Shown here: positions 21,611 through 39,583 of the stretch, one piece after another
Position numbering within the stretch: position 1 is the first letter of the stretch
Layout: the number at the start of each line of letters is the position of its first letter
Assembly: GCA_963771075.1 (NCBI GenBank)
Contig: CAVYSE010000017.1
Location: forward strand, 32,001 to 96,000
DNA: 64,000 nucleotides
Direction: 5' to 3'
From: a candidate division FCPU426 bacterium
Lineage (GTDB): Bacteria > Oederibacteriota > Muellerivitia > Muellerivitales > Muellerivitaceae
Notes under the pieces: model-generated
Seen by the model: the letters and a program-made list of their open reading frames with translations, nothing else
What the model was told of the DNA's origin: nothing
The model's database searches: none
Made by a program: the position numbers and the translations under genes

Positions 21611-21688
21611 ATTGTGGCTAAAAGGGGGGATTAGGACGTCCGGGAAAAAACCGGGTTTATGCCGGAGGAACTCCGTAAAAAACACGGA
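21611..21688 (-). promoter_or_regulatory. Conserved tandem operator plus -10 element (site 1)
   Basis: TCCGGGAAAAAACCGGG at 21639, TCCGTAAAAAACACGGA at 21672; CACAAT (minus) at 21611-21616. Confidence 0.7.
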
Positions 21689-21719
21689 GATTTCATAGAA
21701 GGAAGGGGAAAATCCCCGT

Positions 21720-22067
21720 CTAATTCATTTTCCTTTTTGGGAGCTTCGCGGAGAAGAGGATCATGTTGAAGATGTGGACGATCCCCACCAACAGGCATTG
21801 CCACCCGAAATAACCGGCGGCCACCTTGATCATTTCATGCGCGTCCTTGAAGTCCTCCTGCCCATAAGCCATGCGGATGAAGATATAGCCGAAATTGATC
21901 AGGTAAAAACCGAGGTCCATCAAGGCCATTAGGGACTGGGACCCTTCCGATTTTTTTGGAAAGATGTAACTCAGGAAATAACTTCCATGCCGCTTCAAAA
22001 GCCTCGAAACAACGATGGTAAAAACGACTCCCAGCACCAGATAACAAAGGTCGAAGTAAATCACCAT
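21720..22067 (-). CDS. Small membrane protein, about 3 TM helices, function unknown
   Basis: Hydrophobic ORF preceded by GGAGG. Confidence 0.7.
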   Translation of the reverse strand: MVIYFDLCYLVLGVVFTIVVSRLLKRHGSYFLSYIFPKKSEGSQSLMALMDLGFYLINFGYIFIRMAYGQEDFKDAHEMIKVAAGYFGWQCLLVGIVHIFNMILFSAKLPKRKMN

Positions 22068-22109
22068 ATCGCCGCCTCCCCCTCTACCACCCCAGGAAAC
22101 CTTATCCAG

Positions 22110-22337
22110 CTAAGACCTTTTCTGGCGTCCCTGAAATACCTTGTGCCTCACCAGGTCCTTCCATACGTTCGCCAGGTAAAGCACCAGCCCGAGCAGCAAC
22201 AGGGGCTGGCCGATGAAAAGATAAATCAAAAGCGTGACGGGTGAATTATACAGCAGCACCGTCAAGGCCGCCGCGGACCCCAAAAAACAGAGGACGAGGG
22301 CGACTTTCAGCCAGGGACCCAGGTCGAAAAAGATCAT
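22110..22337 (-). CDS. Small two-TM membrane protein coupled to the NapC/NirT gene
   Basis: MIFFDLGPWLKVALVLC...; ATGA overlap with the upstream stop. Confidence 0.7.
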   Translation of the reverse strand: MIFFDLGPWLKVALVLCFLGSAAALTVLLYNSPVTLLIYLFIGQPLLLLGLVLYLANVWKDLVRHKVFQGRQKRS

Positions 22338-22936
22338 GGGGCCGCCTCCGTGTTCCCCGGCGTATGGGCCGGCCCGTGACAGTCCAAGCAGGAAGTCCCG
22401 CCGGTCCTCAGGTCTTCCATGATGGCCAGGTGGGTGGGGGCCTCCAGGAACTTCTTGGACTCCCCGTGGCAATGCAGGCAGTTGGAGGTGTTGTAGGGCT
22501 TGTAAAGCTGGATGGGTTCCTTGACTTCCTTGAAGATATTCGCGTAAACGTGCCGGAGCCCATTCATCTTGGCCTTCTCGTCCCCGAAGAGGGAGTAGTC
22601 CGTATGGCAGGTGAAACACTGGTCTTCCCGGATGTAGCGGTTCTTGTAATGCAGGGACGCCAGGCTTTCGCTTTGCGGGTCCTTCATGTCGCGCACCCGG
22701 CTTTCCATGACGTGGCAGGAGGTGCAAAATGCGACGGTTTTGGAGGTTTCAAAGCTGACCCCCGTTCCAAACAGCAGCACGACCAGGGGCGAAATACCCA
22801 AGACCGCCAAAAGAAACCCCTTCAGCCAGTCCAAATTGGGTAGCGGCAAGGGGAACAGTAATACGATGAAACAGAAAAGCATCATCAGGGCCGCCGCGCC
22901 CACGCCTACCCATGTGAAAAAAACGATTTCTGTCAT
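22334..22936 (-). CDS. NapC/NirT (CymA/NrfH-like) tetraheme quinol dehydrogenase
   Basis: N-terminal TM helices; FCTSCHVM, CFTCH, CLHCH, CLDCH; AKMNGLRHV. Confidence 0.88.
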   Translation of the reverse strand: MTEIVFFTWVGVGAAALMMLFCFIVLLFPLPLPNLDWLKGFLLAVLGISPLVVLLFGTGVSFETSKTVAFCTSCHVMESRVRDMKDPQSESLASLHYKNRYIREDQCFTCHTDYSLFGDEKAKMNGLRHVYANIFKEVKEPIQLYKPYNTSNCLHCHGESKKFLEAPTHLAIMEDLRTGGTSCLDCHGPAHTPGNTEAAP

Positions 22937-23052
22937 GTCGGAATCCTGGAACCTTTGGTGAATTTAAAATTTGTTCGAATTCCACCCCGCCCTCAAAAAG
23001 GATCCGAGGAGCGGAAAGGTCCTTTCCCTGATTTTCCCCTTGCCTCCCGCGC

Positions 23053-23331
23053 TTAAACGCGTGAACGGGTGGAACTGGCCCTTCGTTTGGGGGTTTTTTT
23101 TATCCCGGATAAATTGGGGGAAGTGGTGGCTTGGACATCCAGAAGCACCGGTATGACCCCCTGGGGTCCCTCCTGGGCCTGGACGGCGGGGGTTCCCTCC
23201 CCATTAGCGGCCTTCTTGAACTCGCGCATGGCCTCGCCCATGGCCTTTGCCAAATCAGGCAACTTCTGGGGGCCAAAAAGAAGCATGGCCACGATCACCA
23301 AAAGCAGTATTTCTCCGAAGCGTCCGCCCAT
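23053..23331 (-). CDS. tatA: Twin-arginine translocase TatA/E subunit
   Basis: EILLLVIVAMLLFGPQKLPDLAKAMGEAMREFKK. Confidence 0.9.
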   Translation of the reverse strand: MGGRFGEILLLVIVAMLLFGPQKLPDLAKAMGEAMREFKKAANGEGTPAVQAQEGPQGVIPVLLDVQATTSPNLSGIKKTPKRRASSTRSRV

Positions 23332-23430
23332 GTCACACTCCTTCGTTTAATCCACGAGGGGGAGGAGTCACCCAACCCCTTGATTCAGTTGAATTCCAGA
23401 TTGATGGCCGGGGAAACCCCTCCGTCCATG

Positions 23431-23465
23431 AAAAAAAGCGGTTCGCAATGTCGCGAACCGCTTTT
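23431..23465 (-). terminator. Rho-independent terminator after the lipoprotein gene
   Basis: AAAAGCGGTTCGC..GCGAACCGCTTTT; T7 tail on the minus strand. Confidence 0.75.
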
Positions 23466-23483
23466 GAGTTCCATTTTCCCGGC

Positions 23484-25070
23484 TTAATACATCGTCAGGT
23501 TGTCGATGATGAAGTCCGACGTAGGAGTCTGGCCCGACGCACTGGCCTTGATCTCAACACCGATCGCCGTCACATCCGTCGAGTCGGCCGCCCAACTGAC
23601 TGCATCAGGCGCGAGTTTGAGCGTAGTCCACCCAGCATCAATTCCGGTGGGAAGGCTGGTGAAATTGGGATTAATGGCGCCACTGATGGAACCACCGCCG
23701 TAGACATTCCCATTCGCGTTCATATAGATGGCGCCTCCGATCCAACCAGGCCCAGGAACCGCATCAGACATCACCCAAACCACCATGCTCACCCCTGACG
23801 CGTTATATTGCTGGAAATTGATTGGGAATGGGCTACTGCCGCTCGTTTGCGCTTGTATGTCGTTACCCGCCGACGAGTTCATGGTCAAATCCAAACCATA
23901 ATTGTTGGAAGCCGTTGGAGCAGAAATGCCGGCATCTGATCCCTGAAGTGCCGTGTAGAGCTGGACCGCGACGGAATCCCCCGTCGCGGGAGAAGCCACA
24001 CTGAATCCATCCACCGTATTATCCTCAAGGGTCCAGGAATACTTGGGGATATAGGTCGCCGTCACGGTGGGAGTGACGGTCGGTGTAATCGTCGCCGTGG
24101 AAGTCACGGTCGGCGTATTTGTTTTCGTCGGCGTTAGGGTTTTAGTAATGGTGATTGTGGGCGTACTGGTAACCGTCGAGGTGTAACCATCGAGATTCGT
24201 GTTCGTAGGCGTCGCCGTATTGGTGGCGGTATTGGTGCTTGTAGGCGTATTGGTGACCGTAGGCGTATTGGTAACCGTCGGAGTGTTGGTGATGGTCGAG
24301 GTGTATCCACTGAGATTCGTGTTTGTAGGCGTTGGTGAGTTCGTGACAGTCGGGGTCATCGTGATTGTTTTTGTTGAAGTAGCCGTAGCGGTCGGCCCCA
24401 ACTGTGTGATGGTCACGGCATCTATATAGACCAAGCTCGTGTTAAAACTGGTGCCCTCAGGGCCGGTTCCAAAATTAAGGCTGACCTGCTGGACATCCGC
24501 CAGGTTGTTCGGCGGATTATTGTTGAGTGTCAGGGTATAGAGGACCCACCCGCCTGTAGCTGTCGCCGGGAAAGATTGCGACTGAATGACATTATTGCTT
24601 CCGCTTAAAAGCGCGAGCTCAATATAGGGAGTGGCGCCTAGACCCGACGAGAATACCTTGGAAATGGATACGGCCATGCTGAGGGTTCCCGCGTTGATGA
24701 GATTGATGCCGCCGGGAAAAGTGAAGGAATAATTGCCGAACTGACCCGGTCCTTTGAAGGCCAGGGATGCGCCAAAACAGGACGCGCTAGCGCTGTATCC
24801 GCCCGCCACGCTTACCGGACTCACGCTTAACGCGGCGGTTGCACCGTTGGCTGTGGATCCTTTACCCATCCAGGTGATGGGAGCCCCAAAATCAGCCCCG
24901 GCAACGTCGAAATTCCAGGCGATCGGCAGGCTTTGGACCGCCAGCGAGGCCGGCAATTGGGCCTGGGTGGGGCTGGCGCTGGTGGGGCTGTTGTACATTT
25001 TGCAGGCGGGCAGTATCAGCAAGGTTCCGGCGAGAAAAGCGAGAACCAAAGTCGAATTTTTGAATTTCAT
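23484..25070 (-). CDS. Heme-less lipoprotein with two beta-rich domains joined by a Thr/Pro-rich repeat linker
   Basis: Lipobox-like LPAC; domains end VYIDAVTI and FIIDNLTMY (CBM/jelly-roll-like); no CxxCH. Confidence 0.8.
   Translation of the reverse strand: MKFKNSTLVLAFLAGTLLILPACKMYNSPTSASPTQAQLPASLAVQSLPIAWNFDVAGADFGAPITWMGKGSTANGATAALSVSPVSVAGGYSASASCFGASLAFKGPGQFGNYSFTFPGGINLINAGTLSMAVSISKVFSSGLGATPYIELALLSGSNNVIQSQSFPATATGGWVLYTLTLNNNPPNNLADVQQVSLNFGTGPEGTSFNTSLVYIDAVTITQLGPTATATSTKTITMTPTVTNSPTPTNTNLSGYTSTITNTPTVTNTPTVTNTPTSTNTATNTATPTNTNLDGYTSTVTSTPTITITKTLTPTKTNTPTVTSTATITPTVTPTVTATYIPKYSWTLEDNTVDGFSVASPATGDSVAVQLYTALQGSDAGISAPTASNNYGLDLTMNSSAGNDIQAQTSGSSPFPINFQQYNASGVSMVVWVMSDAVPGPGWIGGAIYMNANGNVYGGGSISGAINPNFTSLPTGIDAGWTTLKLAPDAVSWAADSTDVTAIGVEIKASASGQTPTSDFIIDNLTMY
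24055..24395 (-). repeat. Coding tandem repeats (TNTPTV-type; TNTNLxGYTST twice)
   Basis: Seen in translation and as 18-bp periodicity (GTAGGCGTATTGGT..). Confidence 0.85.
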
Positions 25071-25212
25071 GAAACCCTCCCCGAAACTTGATTTTTTAGT
25101 TTACTAGCCCGAGTAAATCCGACCGGCTATTCGGCGTTCTTTAAACCTCATCCTTACTGAAACAGAGTGAACCGGCCTTTTCCCTTTTCAACGGGAAACA
25201 GCCGAACCTTGA

Positions 25213-27573
25213 TTACAATTTTGCCGTTAACGTCAGGCTGGCCATTTGAGCGGTATAGGGCGCGTCCCATCCTCCCAGAAACATATAATTTAAGGCGCCG
25301 GTAGCGGGTACTGATGAAATACTGCCTACACCGTCGGTTTGCCAATCGTTGACGTTATAAACCTCCAGGAGATAGCTTCCCCGCAGGCTCCAGGTCTCGC
25401 TGATGTGGTACGTAACCCCGAAATTGAAATCTTCCTTCCAATACATGGTATTGGGAAGACTTTGGGTGGGTTGATACACGGCCACCGTGACCGGAGCCCC
25501 GCCCTGTTGAATCACTTGGGAGACCGGAACTCCCGCCGCGGTCAAAGGAAATTGGTTGTTATATCCGCTGAAGATATAGTCACCGGTGTTGTTGGTAAGC
25601 GTCCAACGGGCGTCCAAGTCCACCTTCGAGTTCATCTGATAATTGCCCGCAAAGGAAAGATAGGTAGTGTTTTCCTGCTCATTGAGATACCAGACTTCAC
25701 CCGGGTTAAGCGGGTTTGATGGACTTATATTGCTCGGCCCGTTCGCTTGGTTGTAATTGTAGTTTTCCCAATTAACAGTCCCCGACAGGTTCAAATTGTC
25801 CAGAGGCTGCCAGACAGCCGAAAAGGTCGTGATGTCATGGTAATCGCTCAACAAGCCCAATTGAGTGTTCGAGTTGAGGATGGTCGCCGGAGCTCCGAGC
25901 GAGGTAGTGTAAACATCTCCAGTCAAAGCTTCCGAGCCAGGTTGATAATTATCCCCGCCGGTCGTCCAAGCCGCTGACAACCAAAGGTTTTTCGTGACAT
26001 CGAGCTTCACCTTGGTGGTGAACTCATTGACAACACGATCTGCGATATCATAACGCCGGAATGTGCTTGACAAGGCATCCCCATAGTCGAAAGGCGCATT
26101 GACAGTGCCCGCATTCGGTTGAATTTCCAGATCATTCGTCCAGTTCGACTGACTCGCCACCCGGTCGGAATAAGTGTAATCCCCGCTCACATCCAACCCG
26201 TGAAGAGGCTTCAGATCCAAACCACCCTTGGCGGTTTGCTCCGTGGTCGCCGAAATTTCCCGATCCTGATAATTTTCCCAATTGCAATCATAACCGGCAT
26301 TTAACTGAAGACCCCTCATCAGGGTATAGGTCGCCTTACCGCCCAGATCCTGATTGACCCAACCGAAGTTGTTATTGACCACATTACCGGTATTGACAGC
26401 CCAACTCGCGTCTTTGTCCACATAACCGGGGAAATCAAGGAGAGCGGTCATATCCGCCTGCTCGTAATCTTTATACCGTAAACTGACCACCAGATCCTTT
26501 GTGGGCCGGGAGGTCAAGACGTAATTCTGCGTCAAGATTTGGATACAACCATTCAAGGATTGATAAGCCAAACTGTTCGTGTTGGCAAGCGAGGTCGCCC
26601 CCGGCGGCATACCGGCCGCCGGCAAAGGATCCGCCGTATTCGCGGTATAGGGTAAAAAGGGCTGGTCTTGAGTCTCATAGCCCAGTGAAAAATCAGCGTT
26701 CGCGCGGGTTTCATTATTGATATCCAACAATCCGGAGATCTTGAACGTGTTGGCAAGATTGCTCGGCGCCAAGGAGGCTTGTTCGATACTCGAGGTGCCG
26801 GGTATGCTGTTAGCTTGAGCGGGATTTGACCAGATGATACTGGGAAGACTGTTTTCGTAATCCGAAATCTCGTAACTCGCCCTGAGCGCAAATCCTTTTC
26901 CGTCGTACTCCGCTTTGACATCGCTTTGCGTCGTGGTTTCGTTTAATTCCTGAGGAAGCTCCACCGCTGAGTAGAAAGCGATCGGCCGGCTTCCCGTGCG
27001 CCATTTCTGGTTGCCCCCGACCTCAATATCAAATTCCGGGCTGACTTGGTACTTGGCGGTACCCCCCAACACCGTGTCATGGAGGCCCATCGAAACAGGC
27101 TGGCCATTGGTGTTTTGGTAATTAAGCAAATTTTGGTATTCCTGCTGGCTGGACTGTCCCTGGTTTTCCAAAAGGAGCGATTGGGGAAGCAGGTAAAGAT
27201 TGGGCGAGGGATTGGACCAGATCGTCTCGCCGGTATTCGTGTAAAGATGCTGGTACTGCTGGAAGTTCACATCGACCGTCAGGTCATTCTGGTATTGCAT
27301 GTCCAGGCTGGCTTTCCGGTTGAACCCCCCACCGTCGCTAAAATCCAGGCCGAGGATCCCGTCTTCCCCCTCATAATCCAGCCTGCCGTTCATGACGGCT
27401 CCATCCGGCGAGGCCAGGTATTCGTTGAATTTCGCCTGGTCGGTGGGCTGCAGGTTCGCCTGGAACCCGGAGGTCACATCGCCCGACCATTGGTTGTCGG
27501 CAAAAACCGCCGTGGCGCAGGCCGTGAAGACCAACCCCGCCAGACATTTCCAGACCCGAAATTGATTCCCCAT
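25213..27573 (-). CDS. MtrB/PioB-family outer-membrane beta-barrel
   Basis: 786 aa with signal peptide; AKFNEY, LAPSN, QDQPFLPYT, RRYDIADR; directly downstream of the decaheme gene. Confidence 0.88.
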   Translation of the reverse strand: MGNQFRVWKCLAGLVFTACATAVFADNQWSGDVTSGFQANLQPTDQAKFNEYLASPDGAVMNGRLDYEGEDGILGLDFSDGGGFNRKASLDMQYQNDLTVDVNFQQYQHLYTNTGETIWSNPSPNLYLLPQSLLLENQGQSSQQEYQNLLNYQNTNGQPVSMGLHDTVLGGTAKYQVSPEFDIEVGGNQKWRTGSRPIAFYSAVELPQELNETTTQSDVKAEYDGKGFALRASYEISDYENSLPSIIWSNPAQANSIPGTSSIEQASLAPSNLANTFKISGLLDINNETRANADFSLGYETQDQPFLPYTANTADPLPAAGMPPGATSLANTNSLAYQSLNGCIQILTQNYVLTSRPTKDLVVSLRYKDYEQADMTALLDFPGYVDKDASWAVNTGNVVNNNFGWVNQDLGGKATYTLMRGLQLNAGYDCNWENYQDREISATTEQTAKGGLDLKPLHGLDVSGDYTYSDRVASQSNWTNDLEIQPNAGTVNAPFDYGDALSSTFRRYDIADRVVNEFTTKVKLDVTKNLWLSAAWTTGGDNYQPGSEALTGDVYTTSLGAPATILNSNTQLGLLSDYHDITTFSAVWQPLDNLNLSGTVNWENYNYNQANGPSNISPSNPLNPGEVWYLNEQENTTYLSFAGNYQMNSKVDLDARWTLTNNTGDYIFSGYNNQFPLTAAGVPVSQVIQQGGAPVTVAVYQPTQSLPNTMYWKEDFNFGVTYHISETWSLRGSYLLEVYNVNDWQTDGVGSISSVPATGALNYMFLGGWDAPYTAQMASLTLTAKL

Positions 27574-27599
27574 GTCGCTTCCTCCTTAAGTGATTACCG

Positions 27600-28673
27600 T
27601 TACCTCTGGAATACTTGACCGGCTTTTCCCGGGAAATTACTGCCGTGGATGTTGTAGTGACAGTTCACGCAGCTACCGCCAAGCATTTCTTTTTGGCCAG
27701 CGTTCAATTGTTGACAATCCATGGCCGGTTTGTCGCTATGGCAGCGCTGGCAGAGGAAAGGCGCTCTTTGCGACAGCATGTGGTCGTTGTTGGAACCGTG
27801 CGGGTTATGGCAGTTCAGGCAGCTTTCCTGGACCGGCGGATGCTCGAAGAGGAAGGGGCCCCTCTTATCCGCGTGGCACTTCAAGCAGGTTTCCCGGACG
27901 GAGTCCTCGTTCAGGTTCGTGTTGCCGGAGGTTCCATGCATGTCATGGCAGGAGACGCAGGACATCTCGTCCTCATTGAGGGGCATGTGGCCGTTCTGCG
28001 AGATCTGGGCTTTCTTCTCGATATGGCAGGTAAAGCACACGTCCATGATCTTGGCGGCCTTCAGGATGTGCTTGTTGGGGTTCTTGGGGTCCTTCTGGTG
28101 GACCATATGGCAGGAAACGCAGGTGACATTCTTCATGTCATGCGGGCTTCCCTCCCAATGGAATTGCGCCTGGGCCTTGTGGCAGGAAAGACAGATGGCG
28201 TTCGCATCGGGCGCGGGCATATCGGGGGGGAACTTGATCGTTTTGAACCTGGCATCGGCGGTGTTGTCGGCGAATTCCACGTGCAGGCTTCCGGGCCCGT
28301 GGCAGGTTTCGCAAGTCTTATCGGCGGGAACGTGGCTTTTGCTCGTGAAAAGCCTTCCCATCGCGGAATGCTGGAAGCTGTCCCCGTTATCCTGGTGGCA
28401 GGTGATGCAGGTATCGGTTCCCACGAACTTGGGGATGTTCTCCGTATCCTCCTGGGCCGCCACGGTTTGCCCTGCGGCGCTCGCCGGTTCGGAAACCTTG
28501 TCGGCGGCTCCCTCGGCATCCGGCGCGGAGGGGGTGGCCGCGGAAACGGCGCTGGGCGTCGGGGAAGAATCGGCCTTATCGGCCCATACTCCTTGAAGTG
28601 AGCAAAAGGCTAGGATCATTAAACTTCCGGCGAGTGCTTTCGCGATCCCCCGGTTGACCGTTGGCTTTTTCAT
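27600..28673 (-). CDS. MtrA/DmsE/MtoA/PioA-family decaheme cytochrome c
   Basis: 10 CxxCH; KRGPFLFEHPPV, CHNPHGS, IHGSN, C-terminal FQR. Confidence 0.93.
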   Translation of the reverse strand: MKKPTVNRGIAKALAGSLMILAFCSLQGVWADKADSSPTPSAVSAATPSAPDAEGAADKVSEPASAAGQTVAAQEDTENIPKFVGTDTCITCHQDNGDSFQHSAMGRLFTSKSHVPADKTCETCHGPGSLHVEFADNTADARFKTIKFPPDMPAPDANAICLSCHKAQAQFHWEGSPHDMKNVTCVSCHMVHQKDPKNPNKHILKAAKIMDVCFTCHIEKKAQISQNGHMPLNEDEMSCVSCHDMHGTSGNTNLNEDSVRETCLKCHADKRGPFLFEHPPVQESCLNCHNPHGSNNDHMLSQRAPFLCQRCHSDKPAMDCQQLNAGQKEMLGGSCVNCHYNIHGSNFPGKAGQVFQR

Positions 28674-28848
28674 CTGTCTTCCCCCCTTATTGGTTTAAAA
28701 CCCATTTCCCGCTTCAAGTACGCCTTTGCGTTGTACCGGCCGGGAAAAGTATTTGAAGGTTCTCCGGCTCTTTTTCGTTTGCTCTCTCGTCTGAAACCCG
28801 GCAGGTCTGGCCCGGAAGTTTTTTTGGTTTACCCCTTTGTTACGGCTT

Positions 28849-28926
28849 ATCTTGTCCTATCCTGACAAATGGTTCATCCGCAGAAAAAACGGGTTCTTTC
28901 CCCGGCGCCTACGTAAAAAATACTGA
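28849..28926 (-). promoter_or_regulatory. Conserved tandem operator plus -10 element (site 2)
   Basis: TCCGCAGAAAAAACGGG at 28877, TACGTAAAAAATACTGA at 28910; CAAGAT (minus) at 28849-28854. Confidence 0.7.
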
Positions 28927-28981
28927 AAGGCTCTCCTTCCCGCCGCGGTTCACCAGCCCCGTTACTTTTCAACCTTCCCGA

Positions 28982-30184
28982 TTAGGAATGTTTCTTGGCC
29001 GCCGAAAGCCAGGGCGGCAGGAGACGGACCAAGGCCCAAAGGATGAAAATTGGCAAGACCATCAAAACCGCGCTCAAGAGCAGACCCTCACGGCCGATGA
29101 AATCGGGTTTATAGGTGGTAAACCCGGCCAGGCTCTTGGAAAAAAGCTGGCCCCCGATGACCACGTTCCAGCGGACCGCGAAGACACCGATGAGCACCAG
29201 GCAGGCGGAACCTACGTGGAATATCTTCCTGACGTTTTCGGGAAGCTTGAACAACTGGGTGCTGCCCAGGGCGGCGAGGGGCAAGAGCGTACCCAGGCAC
29301 AATTGGATGACGACCAGGGACAGGAAAAGCTTTCCGGCCACCAGCAAGACCAGGATGTCGATGGATTCCTCCGCCTCGTAAAGCCGGTGGAACCAATCCA
29401 GCGATTCCATCGCGAAGTCAAGGATCAGGGCGTAAAAGAGGAATTTCCCCATGGCGTCCAGGCAGGACATCTGGATCTGCACCTTCCGAATCAGGCAGGT
29501 CACGAAGTAAACCACCAGCATCAGGGCGATGCCGGAAACGACGGCGGAAAAGATGAAGATGACCGGCATCAGCACGGTTCCCCACCAGGGGTTGGCCTTG
29601 ATAGAGCCGAAAATGAAGCCCACATAGCCGTGCAGGAAAAAGGCCGAGGGAATGCCGATGACGGTGATGATCTTCCCCGCCTTGTCGTCCACCGCCAGGG
29701 CTTTTTCCGACGTGTCCTTCACGCCCAGGGTGAGAAGCCCGTAAAATTTCCCGACCCAGCCGGGTTTGGTTTGGGAAAACCTCACGATATCCGCCCGGTA
29801 GTCGTACCAAATCTCCAGGAGGAGCACCGCCATCAGGTACCAGGCATAAACGAACCCGAACATGGCCATGGGCGACGACCAGTGGGGGGTAATCAGGACT
29901 TCCAGGCACCGTTCCGGGTGACCCAGGTGAAACAAAAGAGGCAGCGGGGCGACGATCAGGAAGGAAAGGGCGGTCAACAGGGCTAGCCGGTAGATGGGCT
30001 TGATCTCGTGGACCTTAAACACGCGCTCCAGGGAAGCCAGGATGAAGGCGCCCGCCACCAGGCCCGTCAGGTAGGGGTAAATGACGATCAGGATGCTCCA
30101 CTGCAATTCCAATTCGTTGGGGTAAATATAGCCCTTCACCTGCTGGAGGGCCTCCACAATGGTGCGGATGAAATTGGGATCCAT
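28982..30184 (-). CDS. NrfD/PsrC-family membrane subunit (copy 1)
   Basis: Polytopic; YPYLTGLVAGAF, HLGHPER, SPMAMFG, HGYVGFIF, RWNVVIGGQ. Confidence 0.88.
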   Translation of the reverse strand: MDPNFIRTIVEALQQVKGYIYPNELELQWSILIVIYPYLTGLVAGAFILASLERVFKVHEIKPIYRLALLTALSFLIVAPLPLLFHLGHPERCLEVLITPHWSSPMAMFGFVYAWYLMAVLLLEIWYDYRADIVRFSQTKPGWVGKFYGLLTLGVKDTSEKALAVDDKAGKIITVIGIPSAFFLHGYVGFIFGSIKANPWWGTVLMPVIFIFSAVVSGIALMLVVYFVTCLIRKVQIQMSCLDAMGKFLFYALILDFAMESLDWFHRLYEAEESIDILVLLVAGKLFLSLVVIQLCLGTLLPLAALGSTQLFKLPENVRKIFHVGSACLVLIGVFAVRWNVVIGGQLFSKSLAGFTTYKPDFIGREGLLLSAVLMVLPIFILWALVRLLPPWLSAAKKHS

Positions 30185-30969: not shown

Positions 30970-31412
30970 CGTTTCTCCGGATGGTGGGGATCATGGCACT
31001 TGATGCAATCCTGCCCGGGATAATGGCTCGATAAAGCGACCTGGGGAAACAGCTTGGGCCGGGTCACGTTTTGGCCGTGGCACTTGAGGCACCATTCGTT
31101 CGTTCCGCTTTTGATGGGGGGGGAAATGGAGGGGTCTTCCACATGGGCTTCGGCGGGTCCATGGCAGGTCTCGCAGCTTTGGCTTCCGTGCTTGGAGGCG
31201 TTGAACTCCGCCACCCTTTGGTCATGGCAATCTATGCATACCTTCTTGCCCGCGAAGTGAATGGGCTTGGACGCCAATTCGCCCAGCGCGTCCCCCCGGT
31301 AATGGCCGTACTCATAAAAGGAAGCCGGCCTCACGTAGTTGCGGACCACCAGGAAAACGCCGATAAGCACCAGGAAAATCACGATGGGTTTCCAGACTTG
31401 CTGGGGAATCAT
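30966..31412 (-). CDS. Membrane-anchored tetraheme cytochrome c (copy 1)
   Basis: N-terminal TM helix; CIDCH, CETCH, CLKCH, CIKCH. Confidence 0.88.
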   Translation of the reverse strand: MIPQQVWKPIVIFLVLIGVFLVVRNYVRPASFYEYGHYRGDALGELASKPIHFAGKKVCIDCHDQRVAEFNASKHGSQSCETCHGPAEAHVEDPSISPPIKSGTNEWCLKCHGQNVTRPKLFPQVALSSHYPGQDCIKCHDPHHPEKR

Positions 31413-31517
31413 GTTTTTTCTCCGCCAAGGAAGATGGGTGGTGCCGACGCGGGGGACGGACGTCCCCTTCCCCCGCGCGCGGCGGTCGATCTCCCCATGG
31501 GTGTTTTGAGCTTCTCT

Positions 31518-31886
31518 TTACTTCGCTGCCGGCGGCGCCTGCAGGGTGCGGAGGTATTGGACCACGTCGGCGATTTCCTGCGCCGTCAGCTTGCCGGTGT
31601 ACTTCGGCATTTTCTTCTTGCCGGCTGTGACGATCTTGATGGTGGCGTCATCGGTCAATTTAGCCGCCGTGGAGCTGGTCAGATCCAAGGCCGAGGCGTC
31701 CACTTTTAGCATCTTGGACATTTTGGCCACGCCCTTGCCGTCCTTGCCGTGGCACGAAGTGCACTTGGCGCCGTAATCTTTTTGTGCGGCCGTCATGTCC
31801 GCCCCTTGGGCGTAAGTGGAGGTGAAAAGCAGTACTGAAAAAAGAATGCTTAAGAAAGCCACGATTTCCCTGATATGCTGTTTCAT
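31518..31886 (-). CDS. Periplasmic monoheme cytochrome c (paralog 2)
   Basis: Signal peptide; CTSCH; KMPKYTGKLT. Confidence 0.9.
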   Translation of the reverse strand: MKQHIREIVAFLSILFSVLLFTSTYAQGADMTAAQKDYGAKCTSCHGKDGKGVAKMSKMLKVDASALDLTSSTAAKLTDDATIKIVTAGKKKMPKYTGKLTAQEIADVVQYLRTLQAPPAAK

Positions 31887-31979
31887 GTTTTTCTCCTGTT
31901 AAAAATGATGAATAAACGCGGCCTAAAAGCGCTTGACTTGGGAACGTTCAAAGGCGTTTCGCGCTCTTTAGTTGAACGA

Positions 31980-32057
31980 ATTCTACTTGCGGCTCAAAAG
32001 GAATTCGTCCGTGGAAAATGAGGGTTTGCGGGCCCGTCCCTCCGTAAAAAATACTGA
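31980..32057 (-). promoter_or_regulatory. Conserved tandem operator plus -10 element (site 3)
   Basis: TCCGTGGAAAATGAGGG at 32008, TCCGTAAAAAATACTGA at 32041; TAGAAT (minus) at 31980-31985. Confidence 0.75.
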
Positions 32058-32276
32058 AGACTCTGGAGTTTCATCCCTCTTTTCGTCCCCAAGCGCCCGC
32101 TTCGCCCGGACGCCCGCCATCTAGGAAATCCTTGGCGGAAAACAGTAAGATGAAGGAGCGAAACCCTTTTGCGGGCGAAACGGCTTTTGTGCCTTGGTGG
32201 AGACCGCGGGGTGGGTATGAAGCCGCGAACCGGGGAGTAAGCCCTCACCCCTAGAGATCAAAAAGGTTGAATCGCC

Positions 32277-33326
32277 ATGAAACCCAACGGTCCATCCCCC
32301 GAGCCTTCAGCGCATCCGGCCCGGCCCGGCCTGAAGACGGCCTTCTCCGGTTTTTTCACCCGCCGCAACCTGGTCTGGATCTTTTTGGGTTTCGCGGTGG
32401 GAGGCTTCGCCCTTTTCCAGTCCGTCCGGTATTCCTTTCTTCCCGACGGCCTGAACGAACCCGTCATCCAGGGGCCGCTGGATCTGCAGGAACCCCCGGT
32501 CCAAGCCTCCGCGCCCCCGCCCGGCGTGAACCCGGGGAACAACCCGGCCTTCCGGATGGCCGTGGCGCCCCTGATCTCCCCCGAAAATTCCTTCACCCTC
32601 TATTCACCCTTCGTGAAATACCTGGCGGAACAGTTGGGAAAAAAACCCCAATTGATCCAGCGGCAAACCAACGCGGAGGTGAACGAACTGGTGCGGGACA
32701 ACGACTGCGACATCGCCATCGTCGGCGATTACGCCTACATGCGGGGAGAGCGGGATTTCGGCATGACAGCCTTGGTGGTTCCGCAAATAAAGGGGGCCGT
32801 CACCTACCAATCTTACATCCTGGTCTCCAAATCCTCCCAAGCCCGGTCCCTGCTCGACTTGAAAGGCGAGAAATTCGCCTCGGCGGACATCCTGTCCAAC
32901 ACGGGCTGGCTCTTTCCCGCCGTTTGGTTGAAAGAACACGGGCAGGACCCGGACCATTTCTTCCTCAAACACCTGATCACCGGCAGCAATGACCGGTCGA
33001 TTCAAGCGGTCATGGAGGGCCTGGCGGATGGCGCGGCGGTGAACAGCCAGGTTTACGACCTGGCCGCCGCGAAAAACCCCCTCATCCCATCCTCCACCCG
33101 CATCATTCAAAAATCCCCCCTCTACGGCGCCCCCCCCATCGTCATATCCAGGAACATGGATCCCAAATGGAGGGACGCGATCCTGCAGGCCCTCCTGGGC
33201 ATGCACCTAGACCCGATCGGGCGCATCATTCTTTCCTGCCTCAAGATCGACCGGTACCGGATTCCCGCCCCCGGGCTCTATGACAGCGTTCGCGCCAACG
33301 CGAAATATTTCGAGGCGGCCCCATGA
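32277..33326 (+). CDS. PhnD/SsuA-like periplasmic binding protein (AioX-like sensor accessory)
   Basis: TM anchor; MAVAPLISP, YQSYILV, SNTGW, SNDRSIQAV, DGAAV, SPLYGAPP. Confidence 0.82.
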   Translation: MKPNGPSPEPSAHPARPGLKTAFSGFFTRRNLVWIFLGFAVGGFALFQSVRYSFLPDGLNEPVIQGPLDLQEPPVQASAPPPGVNPGNNPAFRMAVAPLISPENSFTLYSPFVKYLAEQLGKKPQLIQRQTNAEVNELVRDNDCDIAIVGDYAYMRGERDFGMTALVVPQIKGAVTYQSYILVSKSSQARSLLDLKGEKFASADILSNTGWLFPAVWLKEHGQDPDHFFLKHLITGSNDRSIQAVMEGLADGAAVNSQVYDLAAAKNPLIPSSTRIIQKSPLYGAPPIVISRNMDPKWRDAILQALLGMHLDPIGRIILSCLKIDRYRIPAPGLYDSVRANAKYFEAAP

Positions 33327-34783
33327 AGGGCGCTCCCGCGAGAACCCGGCCCCACCTTGGGTGGGTGCGCCGCGTCTTATCGGTTCCCATTTTCTGGAAA
33401 GTCCTGGGCATCGGGATGGTGGTGGCGATGCTGTTCGGGTCCGTGACCTTCTGGCAGTCGCGCACCTCCACGTTGAAAATCCTCCACCGGAATCTCACCC
33501 AGCGTTCGCTCGAGCTGGCCCGCTCCCTGGCCGTCCAGGTGGAATTGCCCCTCTTAATTGACAACACGATGTACATCCAGGAGATCCTGGCCCATTACAT
33601 GGAAACCATACCCGATATCCGCTATATCGTCGTCCACGACACCACGGGAAAAATCGTGGCCCATACCTTCCGCCAGGGCGTTCCGGAAAGCCTGCTCAAG
33701 GCTGAAACCATCCCCCCCGGGCAGGAAAGCCTTTCACGGGTCTTCACCAACTCCAACGGCCTGCTTTTCGATACGGTTTATCCCATCCTCCAGAACCAGG
33801 CGGGCGAGCTCGAGGTGGCGCTGACGGACCAGTCGGTCGTGGGCCAATTGTCCATGTTGAGCCGGGCCATTCTCTGGACCCTGGTTTTTTGCGTGGTCGT
33901 GGGGATCGGCTTGGCCTGGGTCCTGACCCACGTATTGACCCTGCCCCTCCACCACCTGGACCAGGCCGCCCATACCCTGGGCGAGGGAACATTCTCCGCC
34001 AAGTCGGAGATTTTTTACGACGATGAGATTGGGCGTCTGGCCTCCACCTTCAACCAAATGGCGAGCAACCTGGAAAAATACCGCCGGGAAATACTCGAGA
34101 AGGATAAAACCAGGCTCTTCCTTCTGGACAAGATCGTGCGGGCCCAGGAGGAGGAGCGCCGGACGATCTCCCGGGAACTCCACGACCAGATGGGCCAATC
34201 GCTTTCCGCGATCCTTTTCTCCCTTCAATCCGAAGGCAAATCCGGGGACGGCTCCCCCGGCAGCCACAAGCCCTTGGAAGTCAAATTGCGCGCACTCATT
34301 GGGGACGTCCAGAAGCTGGCCTGGAATATGCGCCCTTCCATCTTGGATGATTACGGGTTGGATTCGAGCCTGGCGCGTTACGCCGAGGAAATGTCCCGGC
34401 AGTTGGGAATCCCCATCGATTACCAACACCTGGGCCCCCCGGAGCACCACCGGTTACCGGAGCGCGTGGAAACCACCCTTTACCGCATCACCCAGGAAGC
34501 CGTCACCAACATCGCGAGACACGCGGCCGCCACCCGCGCCAGTATCGTGGTGATCCATCAGCTTGATAATGTGACCCTTTTGGTGGAGGATAACGGCCGC
34601 GGGTTCAAGGCCGACGATAAGGCGAAAGACGGGCTCCATAGCCTGGGGCTCACGGGCATGAGGGAAAGAGCCGGACTTCTGGGCGGGACCTGTGTCGTGG
34701 AGTCCGAGGTGGGAAAGGGTACCGCCGTGCGGATTCAAATACCCCTGGAAAAGGAGATGGGCTCATGGCAATCCGCGTCCTGA
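33323..34783 (+). CDS. Membrane sensor histidine kinase (HAMP, HisKA_3, HATPase)
   Basis: Two TM helices; DEIGRLA; QEEERRTISRELHDQMGQ; QEAVTNIARHA; EDNGRGF; GLTGMRER. Confidence 0.93.
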   Translation: MKGAPARTRPHLGWVRRVLSVPIFWKVLGIGMVVAMLFGSVTFWQSRTSTLKILHRNLTQRSLELARSLAVQVELPLLIDNTMYIQEILAHYMETIPDIRYIVVHDTTGKIVAHTFRQGVPESLLKAETIPPGQESLSRVFTNSNGLLFDTVYPILQNQAGELEVALTDQSVVGQLSMLSRAILWTLVFCVVVGIGLAWVLTHVLTLPLHHLDQAAHTLGEGTFSAKSEIFYDDEIGRLASTFNQMASNLEKYRREILEKDKTRLFLLDKIVRAQEEERRTISRELHDQMGQSLSAILFSLQSEGKSGDGSPGSHKPLEVKLRALIGDVQKLAWNMRPSILDDYGLDSSLARYAEEMSRQLGIPIDYQHLGPPEHHRLPERVETTLYRITQEAVTNIARHAAATRASIVVIHQLDNVTLLVEDNGRGFKADDKAKDGLHSLGLTGMRERAGLLGGTCVVESEVGKGTAVRIQIPLEKEMGSWQSAS

Positions 34784-35418
34784 TCGCCGACGACCATGCG
34801 GTCTTTCGCAGCGGCCTCAAGGCCCTTTTGGAAAAAGAAAAGGATATCACCGTGGTGGGGGAAACGGGGACGGGCCTGGAGACCATCAAGACCGCGGCCA
34901 AGACCCCACTGGACGTGCTTTTACTCGATATCAGCCTTCCCGACATCCCGGGCTCCAAGGTGGCCGAATCGGTTTTGCAGGATCATCCCCAAATGGCGAT
35001 CGTTATCTTGACCATGCACGCGGACGAATATTACCTTCAGGAAATGCTGAAAATCGGGGTTCGAGGTTACATGCTTAAAAAATCATCGGGAGCGGATTTG
35101 ATCCAGGCCATCCGGGCCGCCCACCGGGGCGAATCCTACCTGGACCCCGCCTTGGCTTCCAATGTCATCAACTCTTACGTAGGCGCCGGAAAAGGAAAAA
35201 GAAAAACGGGGCGGTTGGACCTTTTGACCCGCAGGGAGCAGGAAATATGCGCCTTGCTGGCGTTCGGCCACACGAACGGGGAAATTGCCGAAAAACTTTC
35301 CATTTCCGAGCGGACGGTGGAAACTCACCGCGTCAACATCCTTTCGAAACTGGGGCTCAAAAGTCGGGCCGAATTGGTTCGGTTCGCCATCGACAACAGC
35401 CTGGTGAAGTTCACATAG
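34765..35418 (+). CDS. NarL/LuxR-family response regulator
   Basis: IADDH, LLDISLP, LTMH, LTRREQE, TVETHRVNILSKLG. Confidence 0.95.
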   Translation: MAIRVLIADDHAVFRSGLKALLEKEKDITVVGETGTGLETIKTAAKTPLDVLLLDISLPDIPGSKVAESVLQDHPQMAIVILTMHADEYYLQEMLKIGVRGYMLKKSSGADLIQAIRAAHRGESYLDPALASNVINSYVGAGKGKRKTGRLDLLTRREQEICALLAFGHTNGEIAEKLSISERTVETHRVNILSKLGLKSRAELVRFAIDNSLVKFT

Positions 35419-35527
35419 CCGGCTTTTCAATGACAACCTAAAAACCTATTGGAATTGTTTTTTCCGGTGCCACGAACCCTTTCGGGGCGACCCCACAAGG
35501 GTTGGCCCCCGGTTCAAGTCACCCGCC

Positions 35528-36390: not shown

Positions 36391-36535
36391 TCCAGTACTT
36401 TTCATGATGAATCGCCTCGCTTTCTTGGAACGCTTTTCTAGATTTCTTTCATTCAGAATTTGAGCGGGACCAGATTTCCCATAAACCGCAAGGCCGCGTC
36501 ATATTGTAAACCTGCCGTCCTCGGTCCTTCTTTTT

Positions 36536-37735
36536 TTAAGAGCTTTTCTTGGTTGAAGAAAGCCACGGGGGCAAGAGACGGGTCAAGACCCAAAGAATCA
36601 AGAAGGGCAGGATCAAAAGGAACCCGGCGATCAAAAACCCTTCCCGGCCCCATAATTCGGGTTCAAAGGTTCGAAGGCCCTCCCAACTCTTGGAAAAAAG
36701 CTGGCCTCCGATGACCATATTACAACGGTCCGCGAACACGCCGATGAGCACGAGGAAGGCGGAAACCAAATGGAACCACTCCCGCGTTTTTTCGGGAATT
36801 TTGAAGGCCTGGGTGCTGCCCAAGAGGGCGAGGGGCAAAAGCGTCCCCAGGCCTAATTGGATGACGATCAGGGATTGGAATAACTTCTCAAAAACCAGCT
36901 GGAACAGGATATTAAGGGATTCTTCCGAAGCGTAAAACCGGTGGGCCCCATCCAGCCCTTCCAGGGCAAAATCCACGATCAAGAGGTAAAAAAGAAATTT
37001 CCCCATCACGTCCAGGCAGGGCATTTGGAGGGGCACTTTCCGTATGAGGCTGGTCACAAAATAAACCACCATCATCAGGGCGATGCCCGAAACAATGGCG
37101 GAAAACATGAAGTTCACCGACATCATGGCCGACCCCCACCAGGGGTTGGATTTGACGGTGCTGAAAATGAGGGCCACATAGCCCGGCAGGAATAAGGCCG
37201 CCGGAATGCCGATGGTCCCGATCACCTTTCCCGCCTTTTGGTCGATGGCCAGGGCTTTTTCGGAAGTGTCCTTCACCCCGAGCGTAAGCAGGCCATAAAA
37301 TCGGCCCATCCATCCGGGTTTGGTTTTGGAAAACCCCACCAAGTCCGCCCGGTAGTTGTACCAAATCTCCAGGAACATCACGATCAAATAGGCCCCATAA
37401 ACGAACCCAAACATGGCCATGGGGGATGTCCAATGCGGGGTGATCAGAATTTCAAAACCCCTCAAGGGGTGTTCCAGGTGGAACAAGAGCGGGAGAGGCG
37501 CGACCAGGAGCAGGGAAAGGGAGGTTAGCATCGCCAGGCGTTGAATGGGCCTGATGTCATGAAACTTGAAAACCTTCTCCAGGGAAACCAGGATGAATGC
37601 ACCCGCCTCCAGGCCCACCAAATAGGGATAGATCACGATCAGGATGCTCCAAATCAATACCGACTCATTGGGGTAAATGTAACCCATGATCGGATGGAAA
37701 GGTTCGAAGAGGGACCGCCCCGTTTGGATATCCAT
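36536..37735 (-). CDS. NrfD/PsrC-family membrane subunit (copy 2)
   Basis: Collinear paralog of 28982-30184; true start MDIQTG overlaps the upstream TAA. Confidence 0.88.
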   Translation of the reverse strand: MDIQTGRSLFEPFHPIMGYIYPNESVLIWSILIVIYPYLVGLEAGAFILVSLEKVFKFHDIRPIQRLAMLTSLSLLLVAPLPLLFHLEHPLRGFEILITPHWTSPMAMFGFVYGAYLIVMFLEIWYNYRADLVGFSKTKPGWMGRFYGLLTLGVKDTSEKALAIDQKAGKVIGTIGIPAALFLPGYVALIFSTVKSNPWWGSAMMSVNFMFSAIVSGIALMMVVYFVTSLIRKVPLQMPCLDVMGKFLFYLLIVDFALEGLDGAHRFYASEESLNILFQLVFEKLFQSLIVIQLGLGTLLPLALLGSTQAFKIPEKTREWFHLVSAFLVLIGVFADRCNMVIGGQLFSKSWEGLRTFEPELWGREGFLIAGFLLILPFLILWVLTRLLPPWLSSTKKSS

Positions 37736-38520
37736 TATTTCACCGCCATATCGAGGCCCACGTAGTAAACCTTCGGTTGGGTCCCCATGTAGGGTTTCAA
37801 CACCTGGATCTGGTTCTCCGCCAGGAAGGCATGGATGGGGCTTTGGGGGTCCTTCAGGTCGCCGAATTTCCGGGTGCCTGTGGGACAAACCTCCACGCAG
37901 GCCGGCTGGAGTCCGCGAGTAATCCGGTGGTAGCAAAAGGTGCACTTCTCGGCGGAGTGGGTGATCGGGCTGAAGAACCGGCAGCCGTAAGGACAGGTCT
38001 CCACGCAGAAACCGCAGCCGATGCAGTAATTGGTATCCACCAGGTCCACCCCATCCGGGGAACGGAAGGTGGCTCCCGTCGGACAAACCTGGGAGCAGGG
38101 GGAATTCGCGCAATGGTTGCACATTTTAGGCAGGAAAAAGGTCCGGTCCTCCCCTTGAAGCTTGGCGATGGGCGGAAAGCCATCCTTCCCCCCGTTGGGC
38201 GAGTCGATATAAACCACTTGGCCGTTCCTTGCCTCGTACCTTTCCACCCAGGTCCTGAAATAATGGGGCTCGTCGGGCACGCCATTTTCCGCCTTGCAGG
38301 CGGCCACGCAGCTTCCGCACCCAATGCACTTCTCCACGTCAATGCAGTAGCACCAATTATGGTCCTCGGGTTTGTAGCCTTCCGGAAGGACATCGGCGCC
38401 CCGGGCCTTTCGCGGGGCCCAGAAAAACAAGCCCGAGAGAACGGAAGACACCACTGCGGAACATTTCAAGGCCAACTTCATGAACTGCCTGCGGGAGAGG
38501 GTCTCGGTCACCAGTTTCAT
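37735..38520 (-). CDS. NrfC/PsrB-type 4x[4Fe-4S] protein, Tat-exported (copy 2)
   Basis: SRRQFMK; four Cys clusters; ends VYYVGLDMAVK like copy 1. Confidence 0.92.
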   Translation of the reverse strand: MKLVTETLSRRQFMKLALKCSAVVSSVLSGLFFWAPRKARGADVLPEGYKPEDHNWCYCIDVEKCIGCGSCVAACKAENGVPDEPHYFRTWVERYEARNGQVVYIDSPNGGKDGFPPIAKLQGEDRTFFLPKMCNHCANSPCSQVCPTGATFRSPDGVDLVDTNYCIGCGFCVETCPYGCRFFSPITHSAEKCTFCYHRITRGLQPACVEVCPTGTRKFGDLKDPQSPIHAFLAENQIQVLKPYMGTQPKVYYVGLDMAVK

Positions 38521-38963
38521 GGGTTCTCCGGATGATGGGGATTGTGACAGCTCAGGCAATCCACGTCGGGATTATGCTCGGCCTCGATCACCTGGGGAAA
38601 GGACTTCCGGCGAAATTCGTTCATACCGTGGCACTTGAGGCACCGGATATTCGTTAAGGTCGTGACAGGAGCGGAAACGGTGGGATCCTCCACGTGGGCC
38701 TCGGAAGGCCCATGGCAATTTTCGCAGCTGATGCCGGCGTGCTTGGAATGGTTGATTTCCTTCACCTTTGCGTCATGGCAATCCACGCAGGCTTTTTTGC
38801 CCGCAAAATGGATGGGTTTGGACGCTAGCTCGCCCAAAGCCGCACCCCGGTAATGGCCGTATTGACCAAAGGAAGCCGGATAAAAATAAGCCCGAACCAC
38901 CAGGAAAAGCACAAGCAGGGTCAGCACGATCACGAAGGGTTTCCAGATTTGCTCGGGAATCAT
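38517..38963 (-). CDS. Membrane-anchored tetraheme cytochrome c (copy 2)
   Basis: CVDCH, CENCH, CLKCH, CLSCH; paralog of 30966-31412. Confidence 0.88.
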   Translation of the reverse strand: MIPEQIWKPFVIVLTLLVLFLVVRAYFYPASFGQYGHYRGAALGELASKPIHFAGKKACVDCHDAKVKEINHSKHAGISCENCHGPSEAHVEDPTVSAPVTTLTNIRCLKCHGMNEFRRKSFPQVIEAEHNPDVDCLSCHNPHHPENP

Positions 38964-39050
38964 TTTTACTCCGCCCATAGGGGGTGAATCGGTCTAGGAG
39001 TGGAATAAAGCCCCACCCCAGCGCGACAGCCGACCACCCGATGATTTCGA

Positions 39051-39419
39051 TTACTTCGTAGCCGCTATCCCCTGCAAGGAACGGAGATATTGGACCACAT
39101 CGGCGATTTCTTGCGCTGTCAGCTTGCCCGTGTATTTCGGCATTTTTTTCTTGCCGACGGCGATGGACTTGGCGGTGGCCTCGTCGGTCAATTTCACCAC
39201 GGTGGGCCGGGTCATATCCAAGGACGAGGGGTCCACTTTCAAAAGCGTGGACATCTTGACCACGCCCTTGGCGTCCTTGCCATGGCACGAAGCACACTTG
39301 GCGCCATAATTTTGCTGGGCCGCCGTCAGGTCCGCCCCTTGGGCGTAAGTGGAGTTGAAAAGAAGGACTGATAGAAGAATGCCTAAAAACACCACGATTT
39401 CCCGGATGTGCTGTTTCAT
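39051..39419 (-). CDS. Periplasmic monoheme cytochrome c (paralog 1)
   Basis: CASCH; KMPKYTGKLTAQEIADVVQYLR shared with 31518-31886. Confidence 0.9.
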   Translation of the reverse strand: MKQHIREIVVFLGILLSVLLFNSTYAQGADLTAAQQNYGAKCASCHGKDAKGVVKMSTLLKVDPSSLDMTRPTVVKLTDEATAKSIAVGKKKMPKYTGKLTAQEIADVVQYLRSLQGIAATK

Positions 39420-39505
39420 TTTTTTCTCCTGTTGAAAATGATGTAAACCTTGGATAAAAAGAGCGCGTTTGGTTGAATTAAAAACCTTTGCCTTTTGTTG
39501 AACGA

Positions 39506-39583
39506 ATTCTACTCACGGGAAAAAAAGAATTCGTCCGTGGAAAAGGACGTTTTGTGGCCTGCGCGCTCCGTAAAAAGTACTGA
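39506..39583 (-). promoter_or_regulatory. Conserved tandem operator plus -10 element (site 4)
   Basis: TCCGTGGAAAAGGACGT at 39534, TCCGTAAAAAGTACTGA at 39567; TAGAAT (minus) at 39506-39511. Confidence 0.75.

Follow-up and report, generated by a model that had tools for sequence, protein, structure and literature searches.

At the ogt promoter of Escherichia coli the response regulator NarL needs two sites, at -44.5 and -77.5, according to the section of PMC7419079 drawn on here, and at the yeaR promoter NarL at -43.5 recruits RNA polymerase through alphaCTD and makes no contact with sigma4, according to that of PMC10853779. The ArrXSR system of Chrysiogenes arsenatis, of the AioXSR/ArxXSR family, has its genes in the order binding protein (X), sensor kinase (S) and response regulator (R). 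The section of PMC5908839 on ArrR describes it as FixJ-like and without an AAA+ domain and gives one putative 16-nt ArrR site upstream of arrA (tcaggtttttccctga, a single 16-mer, proposed only); the corresponding part of PMC5492636 only restates ArrTSR. Here we analyzed a 64,000-nt stretch of DNA from a candidate division FCPU426 bacterium (contig CAVYSE010000017.1, positions 32,001 to 96,000; hereafter the window, whose own numbering is used throughout). It carries four pairs of 17-bp boxes, which are likely the operators of a neighbouring NarL-family regulator (34765-35418) that would bind them as two dimers and activate transcription. The two-box mechanism is known from NarL, and the three-gene module is known from XSR systems. 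A 17-bp two-box operator with its cognate subfamily and with respiratory and electron-export targets was not found in the mainly open-access papers and paper sections searched, among which only PMC5908839 has a related site.

Four two-box promoters in the window

The four promoters lie on the minus strand and share one layout, consisting of a 17-nt distal box, a 16-nt spacer, a 17-nt proximal box, 22 nt and a -10-like hexamer, with a start codon with a ribosome-binding site 80-170 nt beyond the hexamer. Ranks in the following list are those of the genome-wide pair scan described below.

21672..21688, minus strand: site 1 distal box, predicted centre about -76; genome rank 1, pair score 39.4 bits
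21639..21655, minus strand: site 1 proximal box, predicted centre about -43
21611..21616, minus strand: site 1 -10-like hexamer CACAAT; predicted start near 21604
28910..28926, minus strand: site 2 distal box, 55 nt past the stop codon of nrfD copy 1; rank 3
28877..28893, minus strand: site 2 proximal box
28849..28854, minus strand: site 2 -10-like hexamer CAAGAT, the weakest of the four; predicted start near 28842
32041..32057, minus strand: site 3 distal box; rank 2
32008..32024, minus strand: site 3 proximal box
31980..31985, minus strand: site 3 -10 hexamer TAGAAT; predicted start near 31973
39567..39583, minus strand: site 4 distal box; rank 4
39534..39550, minus strand: site 4 proximal box, the most degenerate
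39506..39511, minus strand: site 4 -10 hexamer TAGAAT; predicted start near 39499

The distal boxes are TCCGTAAAAAACACGGA (21672), TACGTAAAAAATACTGA (28910), TCCGTAAAAAATACTGA (32041) and TCCGTAAAAAGTACTGA (39567), their 17-bp consensus is TCCGTA-N5-(T/C)(A/C)CGGA with a T-rich core, and the proximal boxes are weaker. A first-pass annotation of this DNA had reported these distal boxes, proximal boxes that begin with TCCG and hexamers at a 23-bp offset, and all of them were verified at the same positions at all four sites; the offset corresponds to a gap of 22 nt between proximal box and hexamer. The spacing of exactly 33 bp that it gave between the boxes likewise held at every site in the window, whereas in other genomes the spacing is 33 or 34 bp and sometimes 32. 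In the 4,394,442-bp genome the distal consensus of that annotation occurred at only four places with 0 or 1 mismatch, all of them here, and at 11 places with 2 mismatches. Since this consensus was made from the sites themselves, the count is not independent, and a matrix from other organisms (see below) is the independent test.

Conservation is concentrated in the boxes. Pairwise comparison of the window sites and one site from a second genome of the phylum (G021) gave identities of 14-16/17 for the distal box, 10-14/17 for the proximal box, 6-9/16 for the spacer and 3-9/20 for the 20 nt upstream. None of the four window promoters has a consensus -35/-10 pair, and the would-be -35 hexamers (ACGTCC, ATGAAC, ACGAAT and ACGAAT) are far from consensus. 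Box centres of -43 and -76 assume that the hexamer occupies -12 to -7, which puts the last base of the proximal box at about -35.

Three further elements were considered and not retained. The high scores at a spacing of 30/31 that suggested a third box at site 1 come from its distal box and an upstream sequence that matches only weakly (3-4 bits). There is no support for autoregulation, with site 3 driving the X-S-R genes as well, or for site 4 controlling ccsA/resB, as the plus strand side of each site has neither a proximal box nor a -10.

The regulator and the motif at its orthologues

The predicted binder and its kinase adjoin each other.

34765..35418, plus strand: NarL/FixJ-family response regulator, predicted to bind the boxes; PF00072 REC domain (D55, T83, K105) and PF00196 GerE helix-turn-helix
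33323..34783, plus strand: sensor kinase adjoining the regulator; sCache_3_2, HAMP, HisKA_3 (PF07730, His287) and HATPase domains

The REC domain with a phospho-acceptor Asp, the GerE domain and the adjacent HisKA_3 kinase place the regulator in the NarL/FixJ family; it has no AAA+ domain, and its closest solved structures are VraR, NarL and DevR. Its only full-length match in the genome at E 1e-10 is itself, and one other GerE domain is encoded, on contig C3. It belongs to a tight subfamily, which comprises 766 protein clusters at E 1e-60.

We collected 69 orthologue loci (56-72% identity to the window regulator; 55 clusters at 90%) and 18 distant NarL-type control loci. Without seeding, CGTA-N5-TACG was the top 4-mer inverted repeat of the 3584 tested, present in the intergenic DNA of nine of the 69 loci vs 0.47 expected, and nothing comparable was enriched in the intergenic DNA of the 18 distant loci. 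This count was restricted to intergenic DNA; without masking, palindromes within the coding sequences of the regulator and kinase genes that the loci share made up most of the count. Expectation-maximization (EM) was applied to the 300 nt behind the regulator stop codon (52 of the 55 clusters had enough DNA, and the window was left out) and returned TCCGTatTTTtccCGGA, with a log-likelihood of 276 vs 61 for shuffles. Wider EM models contained two boxes and then a TA-rich element. When the genome was scanned with the EM matrix at a spacing of 33/34, the window sites ranked 1-4, with pair scores of 39.4, 34.0, 30.4 and 24.0 bits and the next pair at 18.3; scored as single boxes, they ranked 1, 2, 6 and 7.

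Pairs of at least 20 bits were found at 37 of the 69 orthologue loci (31/55 clusters, training set included) vs 1 of the 18 controls. This lone control, L078, has the recognition helix of the subfamily, and the remaining 17 controls have no pair. The helix, S-[ED]-R-T-V-E-[TS]-H-R in most rows, is near-invariant in the motif-bearing loci. After rows with a proximal score below 2.5 or a distal score below 10 were dropped, 31 non-redundant pairs were kept. Their spacing was 34 bp in 17, 33 in 8 and 32 in 6, and the distal box was the stronger in 28. TAnnnT stood at a gap of 22 in 11 of the 31 and of 23 in four, with any other single gap accounting for at most two. Permitting C at the first position (TAnnnT or CAnnnT) raised this to 20/31 and covered the C-starting hexamers of sites 1 and 2; CAnnnT at the gap of the site 1 hexamer occurred in five. 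In the orthologue loci the motif sits a few to ~100 nt past the regulator stop codon, ahead of many unrelated target genes, indicating that it follows the regulator and not the target.

We also compared genomes with and without the regulator. In its own phylum the regulator was present in 2 of 99 genomes, and exact matches to the composite pattern occurred only in those two (four and one). Matches with one or two mismatches in eight other genomes of the phylum (9 vs 11 for the reversed control) are background, and the loose matches in L098 and L101, homologous to each other and in stop-free frames, were rejected as such. No pair above 16.7 bits was found at the loci of mtrA-family genes in ten same-phylum genomes without the regulator. 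In a held-out class, that of a Hydrogenedentales genome, 29 of 133 genomes had the regulator, and 12 of 27 new regulator loci had a pair of at least 20 bits vs 0 of 600 shuffles. All 12 pairs lie behind the regulator on its strand and have TAnnnT at a gap of 21-23, with a spacing of 33 bp in nine, 34 in two and 32 in one. The composite pattern was found in 14 of the 29 genomes with the regulator vs 2 of the 104 without it (reversed control, 2/133); we give counts instead of a P value because kin genomes are not independent and some are near training loci. The three-part layout recurs with regulator orthologues in at least two other phyla. Nitrospirota was not counted as a further one, as L006 and L008, titled Nitrospiraceae, fall in one class with the Hydrogenedentales genome. 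The strict exact composite pattern was absent from five orthologue genomes, and at three mismatches there were eight matches in four of the five, two of these matches being chance-like and without a -10.

Apart from those at the regulator's own promoter there are 15 matches with at most two mismatches, of which 13 are in the held-out class and two in a Planctomycetota genome. TAnnnT stands at a gap of 22/23 in 12 of the 15, though the pattern contained no -10. Multihaem cytochrome genes follow five of the 15 (MtrC/OmcA-like in two cases), genes for HybA/HmcB-like Fe-S proteins follow three, and a gene for a formate dehydrogenase-like subunit follows one, nine in all. The link to the local NarL-family regulator drawn by the first-pass annotation is well supported by sequence comparison, through the unseeded motif from orthologue loci, the co-occurrence across genomes, the regulator-less mtrA loci without pairs and the fixed -10.

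Several arrangements depart from the usual pair. Extra boxes with a 20-bp spacing lie upstream of it at L005:1261-1297 and L063:10757-10793, where ferredoxin and 2-oxoacid oxidoreductase genes follow. Apparent three-box arrays (strong, weak, strong; ~32 and 33 bp) stand behind the regulator and before multihaem cytochrome genes in L030, L043, L050 and L071. At L068:1702 a box pair lies 82 nt ahead of the regulator gene itself, which suggests autoregulation in that genome. In the distant NarL-type loci L003, L076 and L091 a shorter inverted repeat, TAGGG-N4-CCC, behind the regulators may be a sister operator, and X-like genes are present in L076 and L091. L183, in a genome (G198) in which the regulator was not found, has a good distal box and TAnnnT at a gap of 21 before a metallopeptidase gene, reflecting either an incomplete assembly or chance.

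Target genes and interpretation of the boxes

All four target units are on the minus strand.

18329..21470, minus strand: unit headed by site 1, encoding two monohaem cytochromes c, a Rieske protein and a fusion of cytochrome b with a dihaem cytochrome c
21720..28673, minus strand: unit headed by site 2, encoding MtrA/DmsE, MtrB/PioB-like porin, Thr-rich lipoprotein-like protein, TatA, NapC/NirT-like tetrahaem protein and a small protein without family
27600-28673, minus strand: MtrA/DmsE decahaem protein of the site 2 unit; TIGR03508, 258.7 bits (cut-off 192.2)
25213-27573, minus strand: MtrB/PioB-like porin of the site 2 unit; TIGR03509, 153.8, below the cut-off of 240
28982..31886, minus strand: unit headed by site 3, encoding a monohaem and a tetrahaem cytochrome c, an NrfC-like Fe-S protein and an NrfD-like membrane protein
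36536..39419, minus strand: unit headed by site 4, a duplicate of that of site 3 with 65-78% identity at the amino-acid level

These genes are as the first-pass annotation had them (cytochrome c/Rieske/cytochrome b, mtrAB-like and both NrfCD modules). No MtrC is encoded within the cluster in the window. Directly behind mtrB, 23484-25070 encodes the lipoprotein-like protein, of 528 aa and rich in Thr and Pro, with 18-nt repeats and without a Pfam or NCBIfam family. CcsA- and ResB-like cytochrome c biogenesis genes (40015-43120) diverge from site 4; a second CcsA/ResB copy lies on contig C28 (65% and 44% identity), and similar genes occur near the regulator in L007, L044 and L061. The closest known systems, MtrAB/MtoAB conduits of the Shewanella/Gallionella type and Cbc quinol oxidoreductases of Geobacter, share with the window the decahaem protein and porin, the NapC/CymA-like tetrahaem protein and the NrfCD-type and Rieske/cytochrome b inner-membrane modules. 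They differ from it in that the window genes appear linked, through a tandem operator, to a local two-component system of their own.

In the proposed mechanism, a signal would enter from the periplasm via the sCache domain of the kinase, which would phosphorylate the regulator at D55. A regulator dimer would first occupy the distal box (about -76), the presumed high-affinity anchor; the weak proximal box (about -43) would then be filled cooperatively, and the regulator there would recruit RNA polymerase. Four sigma70-type promoters without a consensus -35 element would be activated in this way. With NrfCD-type and Rieske/cytochrome b complexes and a NapC-like protein at the quinone pool, the regulon would connect that pool, via cytochromes c in the periplasm, with a conduit of the MtrAB type in the outer membrane.

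The closest parallel is NarL at ogt and yeaR as the cited sections describe it, which likewise has a NarL/FixJ regulator with a HisKA_3 kinase, a distance of 33 bp between two dimer sites, and a weak -35 just beyond the proximal site. Because the box positions mirror those NarL sites (33 bp at all four window sites and 33/34 in most orthologues, proximal centre -43), an ogt-like logic may apply to the window promoters. The site itself differs: the window box is of a 17-bp 6-5-6 TCCGTA-N5-TACGGA type and does not match the 16-bp 7-2-7 site of E. coli NarL/NarP as given in those sections. Further differences from the E. coli NarL system are the stronger distal box, a sensor with an sCache domain plus an accessory binding protein, and targets that are porin-cytochrome and quinol-oxidoreductase genes. 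The class II-like activation envisaged by the first-pass annotation applies only in the non-canonical sense of NarL, since the last base of the proximal box is at about -35 and since NarL at -43.5, in the part of PMC10853779 cited, makes contact with alphaCTD and none with sigma4.

Several observations weigh against activation by this regulator from these boxes. The hexamers at sites 1 and 2 begin with C. In the window regulator, G and K stand at the positions aligned with K174 and R178, the alphaCTD contacts of NarL, so that the contact surface is not simply conserved. Wrong-spacing pairs elsewhere in the genome reach 22-24 bits, the best 24.1 against 24.0 for site 4, which by score alone is at the edge of chance and needs its context. 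No pair of at least 20 bits lies nearby in 24 of the 55 orthologue clusters or at 15 of the 27 held-out loci, and at six of the 15 distant sites the genes that follow are labelled otherwise or not at all, none of them as respiratory. The held-out genomes are one class, some close to training loci, and their counts overstate independence; the own-phylum pattern that gave four matches and one was widened at one position after the G021 site was seen. Binding with the opposite outcome, in which a regulator on the proximal box represses by blocking RNA polymerase at -35, would suit the last base of that box at about -35 and the fair -35 right behind the box in some orthologue promoters (TTGATC 17 nt before TATAAC in L018). 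We consider it quite improbable, because the window -35 hexamers are so far from consensus that the promoters look activator-dependent, the boxes hold a fixed distance upstream of -35 without overlapping -10 or +1, and NarL at equal positions activates in the sections cited.

A different factor, a CRP/FNR-family protein or the second GerE-domain protein, might read the boxes while the two-component system merely accompanies the same cytochrome islands; in G021 the regulator has a Crp-family gene at a distance of 5.5 kb, a second GerE domain is encoded on C3, and two genomes without a detected regulator have matches. That the motif keeps its place behind the regulator stop codon before many unrelated targets, that the recognition helix is near-invariant in motif loci and that the one control with the motif has this helix while the other 17 have no pair make such a reader very improbable. 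A further explanation is that no protein reads the boxes, which would be relics of duplicated promoters or else short hairpins or terminators. Sites 3 and 4 lie inside a duplication with an offset of ~7.5 kb and share 16/22 nt between box and hexamer, and site 1 heads a third paralogue of the cytochrome c behind them (56-57% amino-acid identity); in many orthologue loci the box comes right after a stop codon, and at site 4 the proximal box was flagged as terminator-like. The first-pass annotation had taken sites 1 and 2, outside the duplication, as evidence of selection. Site 2 is the only one of the four to head an unrelated gene, and its flanks match the others at background level. The gene of site 1 is the third cytochrome c paralogue, so that sites 1, 3 and 4 probably descend from one ancestral promoter and the window holds about two independent motif origins, not four. 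Relics do not account for site 2, nor for a motif that is found again, with its -10 at a fixed position, in other phyla and on further contigs; a hairpin stem is disrupted in common variants such as TCCGTAGTTTTCCCGGA, and the regional terminator count is at shuffle level (25 vs 28.3). This explanation is scarcely credible, having been largely refuted already by the held-out loci and the genome counts. Activation by the neighbouring regulator is the reading that we retain.

The ArrX-like protein and a possible respiratory switch

Divergent from site 3, the co-oriented X-S-R genes (32277-35418, plus strand) begin with a binding protein gene.

32277..33326, plus strand: ArrX/AioX-like periplasmic binding protein (X) with an altered pocket; PF12974, best solved relative ArrX (E 4.6e-47)

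The gene order is that of ArrXSR, and ArrX is the best solved relative of X. At seven AioX positions (Tyr88, Cys106, Tyr131, Ser161, Ser163, His192 and Asp210) X has N, G, Y, S, T, N and N, keeping two of seven; N132, G150, N238 and N256 stand where AioX has Y88, C106, H192 and D210. Among the nearest homologues listed, Tyr88 is kept in 118 of 119 (Phe in the other), His192 in 119 of 119 and Cys106 in 109 of 119, and the window X alone among the 120 listed lacks both a Tyr88-like residue and His192. Its nearest relative has lost only the Cys of Tyr88, Cys106 and His192. The pocket change may reflect either decay or a new ligand. Because the ArrX-like partner lost four pocket residues, the signal is probably not arsenic. 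X was present in 10 of the 22 orthologue clusters with enough upstream DNA and was not found in G021 with the window X as query.

Unlike ArrXSR and AioXSR, the module has no adjacent Arr, Arx or Aio molybdoenzyme. No full-length molybdopterin reductase was found in the 96.7%-complete genome, where the only PF00384 match is of 87 residues (contig C11), and no arsenate reductase was found there. By the tests available, the window module is no arsenic sensor. The putative ArrR site tcaggtttttccctga resembles the right two-thirds of the 17-bp box. On the EM matrix, which allows at most 25.3 bits, it scores 10.2 bits in register and as much as 18.0 once a base is inserted; it is a single box, and the section of PMC5908839 on ArrR describes no second box or spacing. 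In orthologue locus L022 the gene that follows the motif is ArrA-like (1117 bits, cut-off 1600). The subfamily of the window regulator may include ArrR or lie next to it.

The G021 promoter is homologous to sites 3 and 4, with 16-18/22 nt shared between box and hexamer. Its first gene differs: in place of the plain cytochrome c of the window there is a monohaem cytochrome-porin fusion (L011:17663-18931), followed by cytochromes c, Rieske protein and cytochrome b. The fusion has one N-terminal CxxCH and a porin-like predicted fold, with no Pfam or NCBIfam family at the thresholds used; its N-terminus is presumably Cyc2-like. Since no MtrA-family match was found in G021 and the fusion lies behind a homologous promoter, a different conduit appears to be under the same switch there.

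Targets in the first set of orthologue loci include ArrA-like, Psr/Phs-like, HybA/HmcB-NrfD, DmsE/MtrA, MtrC, ferredoxin with 2-oxoacid oxidoreductase, and YceI genes. We tentatively suggest, as a possibility that we would not yet favour, that one operator of this widespread subfamily serves as an interchangeable switch of anaerobic respiration across uncultured phyla, and that here an arsenate-sensor-like module was rewired to extracellular electron transfer, its kinase reading a new periplasmic signal. The same two-box promoter would then stand before ArrA-like and Psr-like reductases, HybA/HmcB-NrfD, MtrA, MtrC and the Cyc2-like cytochrome-porin. X would have lost its oxyanion pocket stepwise, with the Cys gone in the nearest relative, Tyr and His gone too in the window and the gene not found in G021.

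To our knowledge, it is only for a few model organisms that the induction of porin-cytochrome conduits and of multihaem respiratory modules is understood. A compact operator of fixed geometry with a named cognate regulator could make regulons readable from uncultured genomes, as in the location of the 15 sites away from the regulator, and the motif would mark respiratory and electron-export genes in such bacteria. The kinase, regulator and promoter form a set ready for finding the inducing signal in a heterologous reporter. The comparison also suggests that ArrX-like sensors control far more than arsenic respiration and that the single ArrR site, as described in that section of PMC5908839, may be a two-box operator in one of its forms.

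Near the two-component system a YceI-like gene recurs with a gene for a protein without family after it (L011:11763-14043, L018 and L035), and in L018 and L035 the YceI-like gene lies directly behind the motif.

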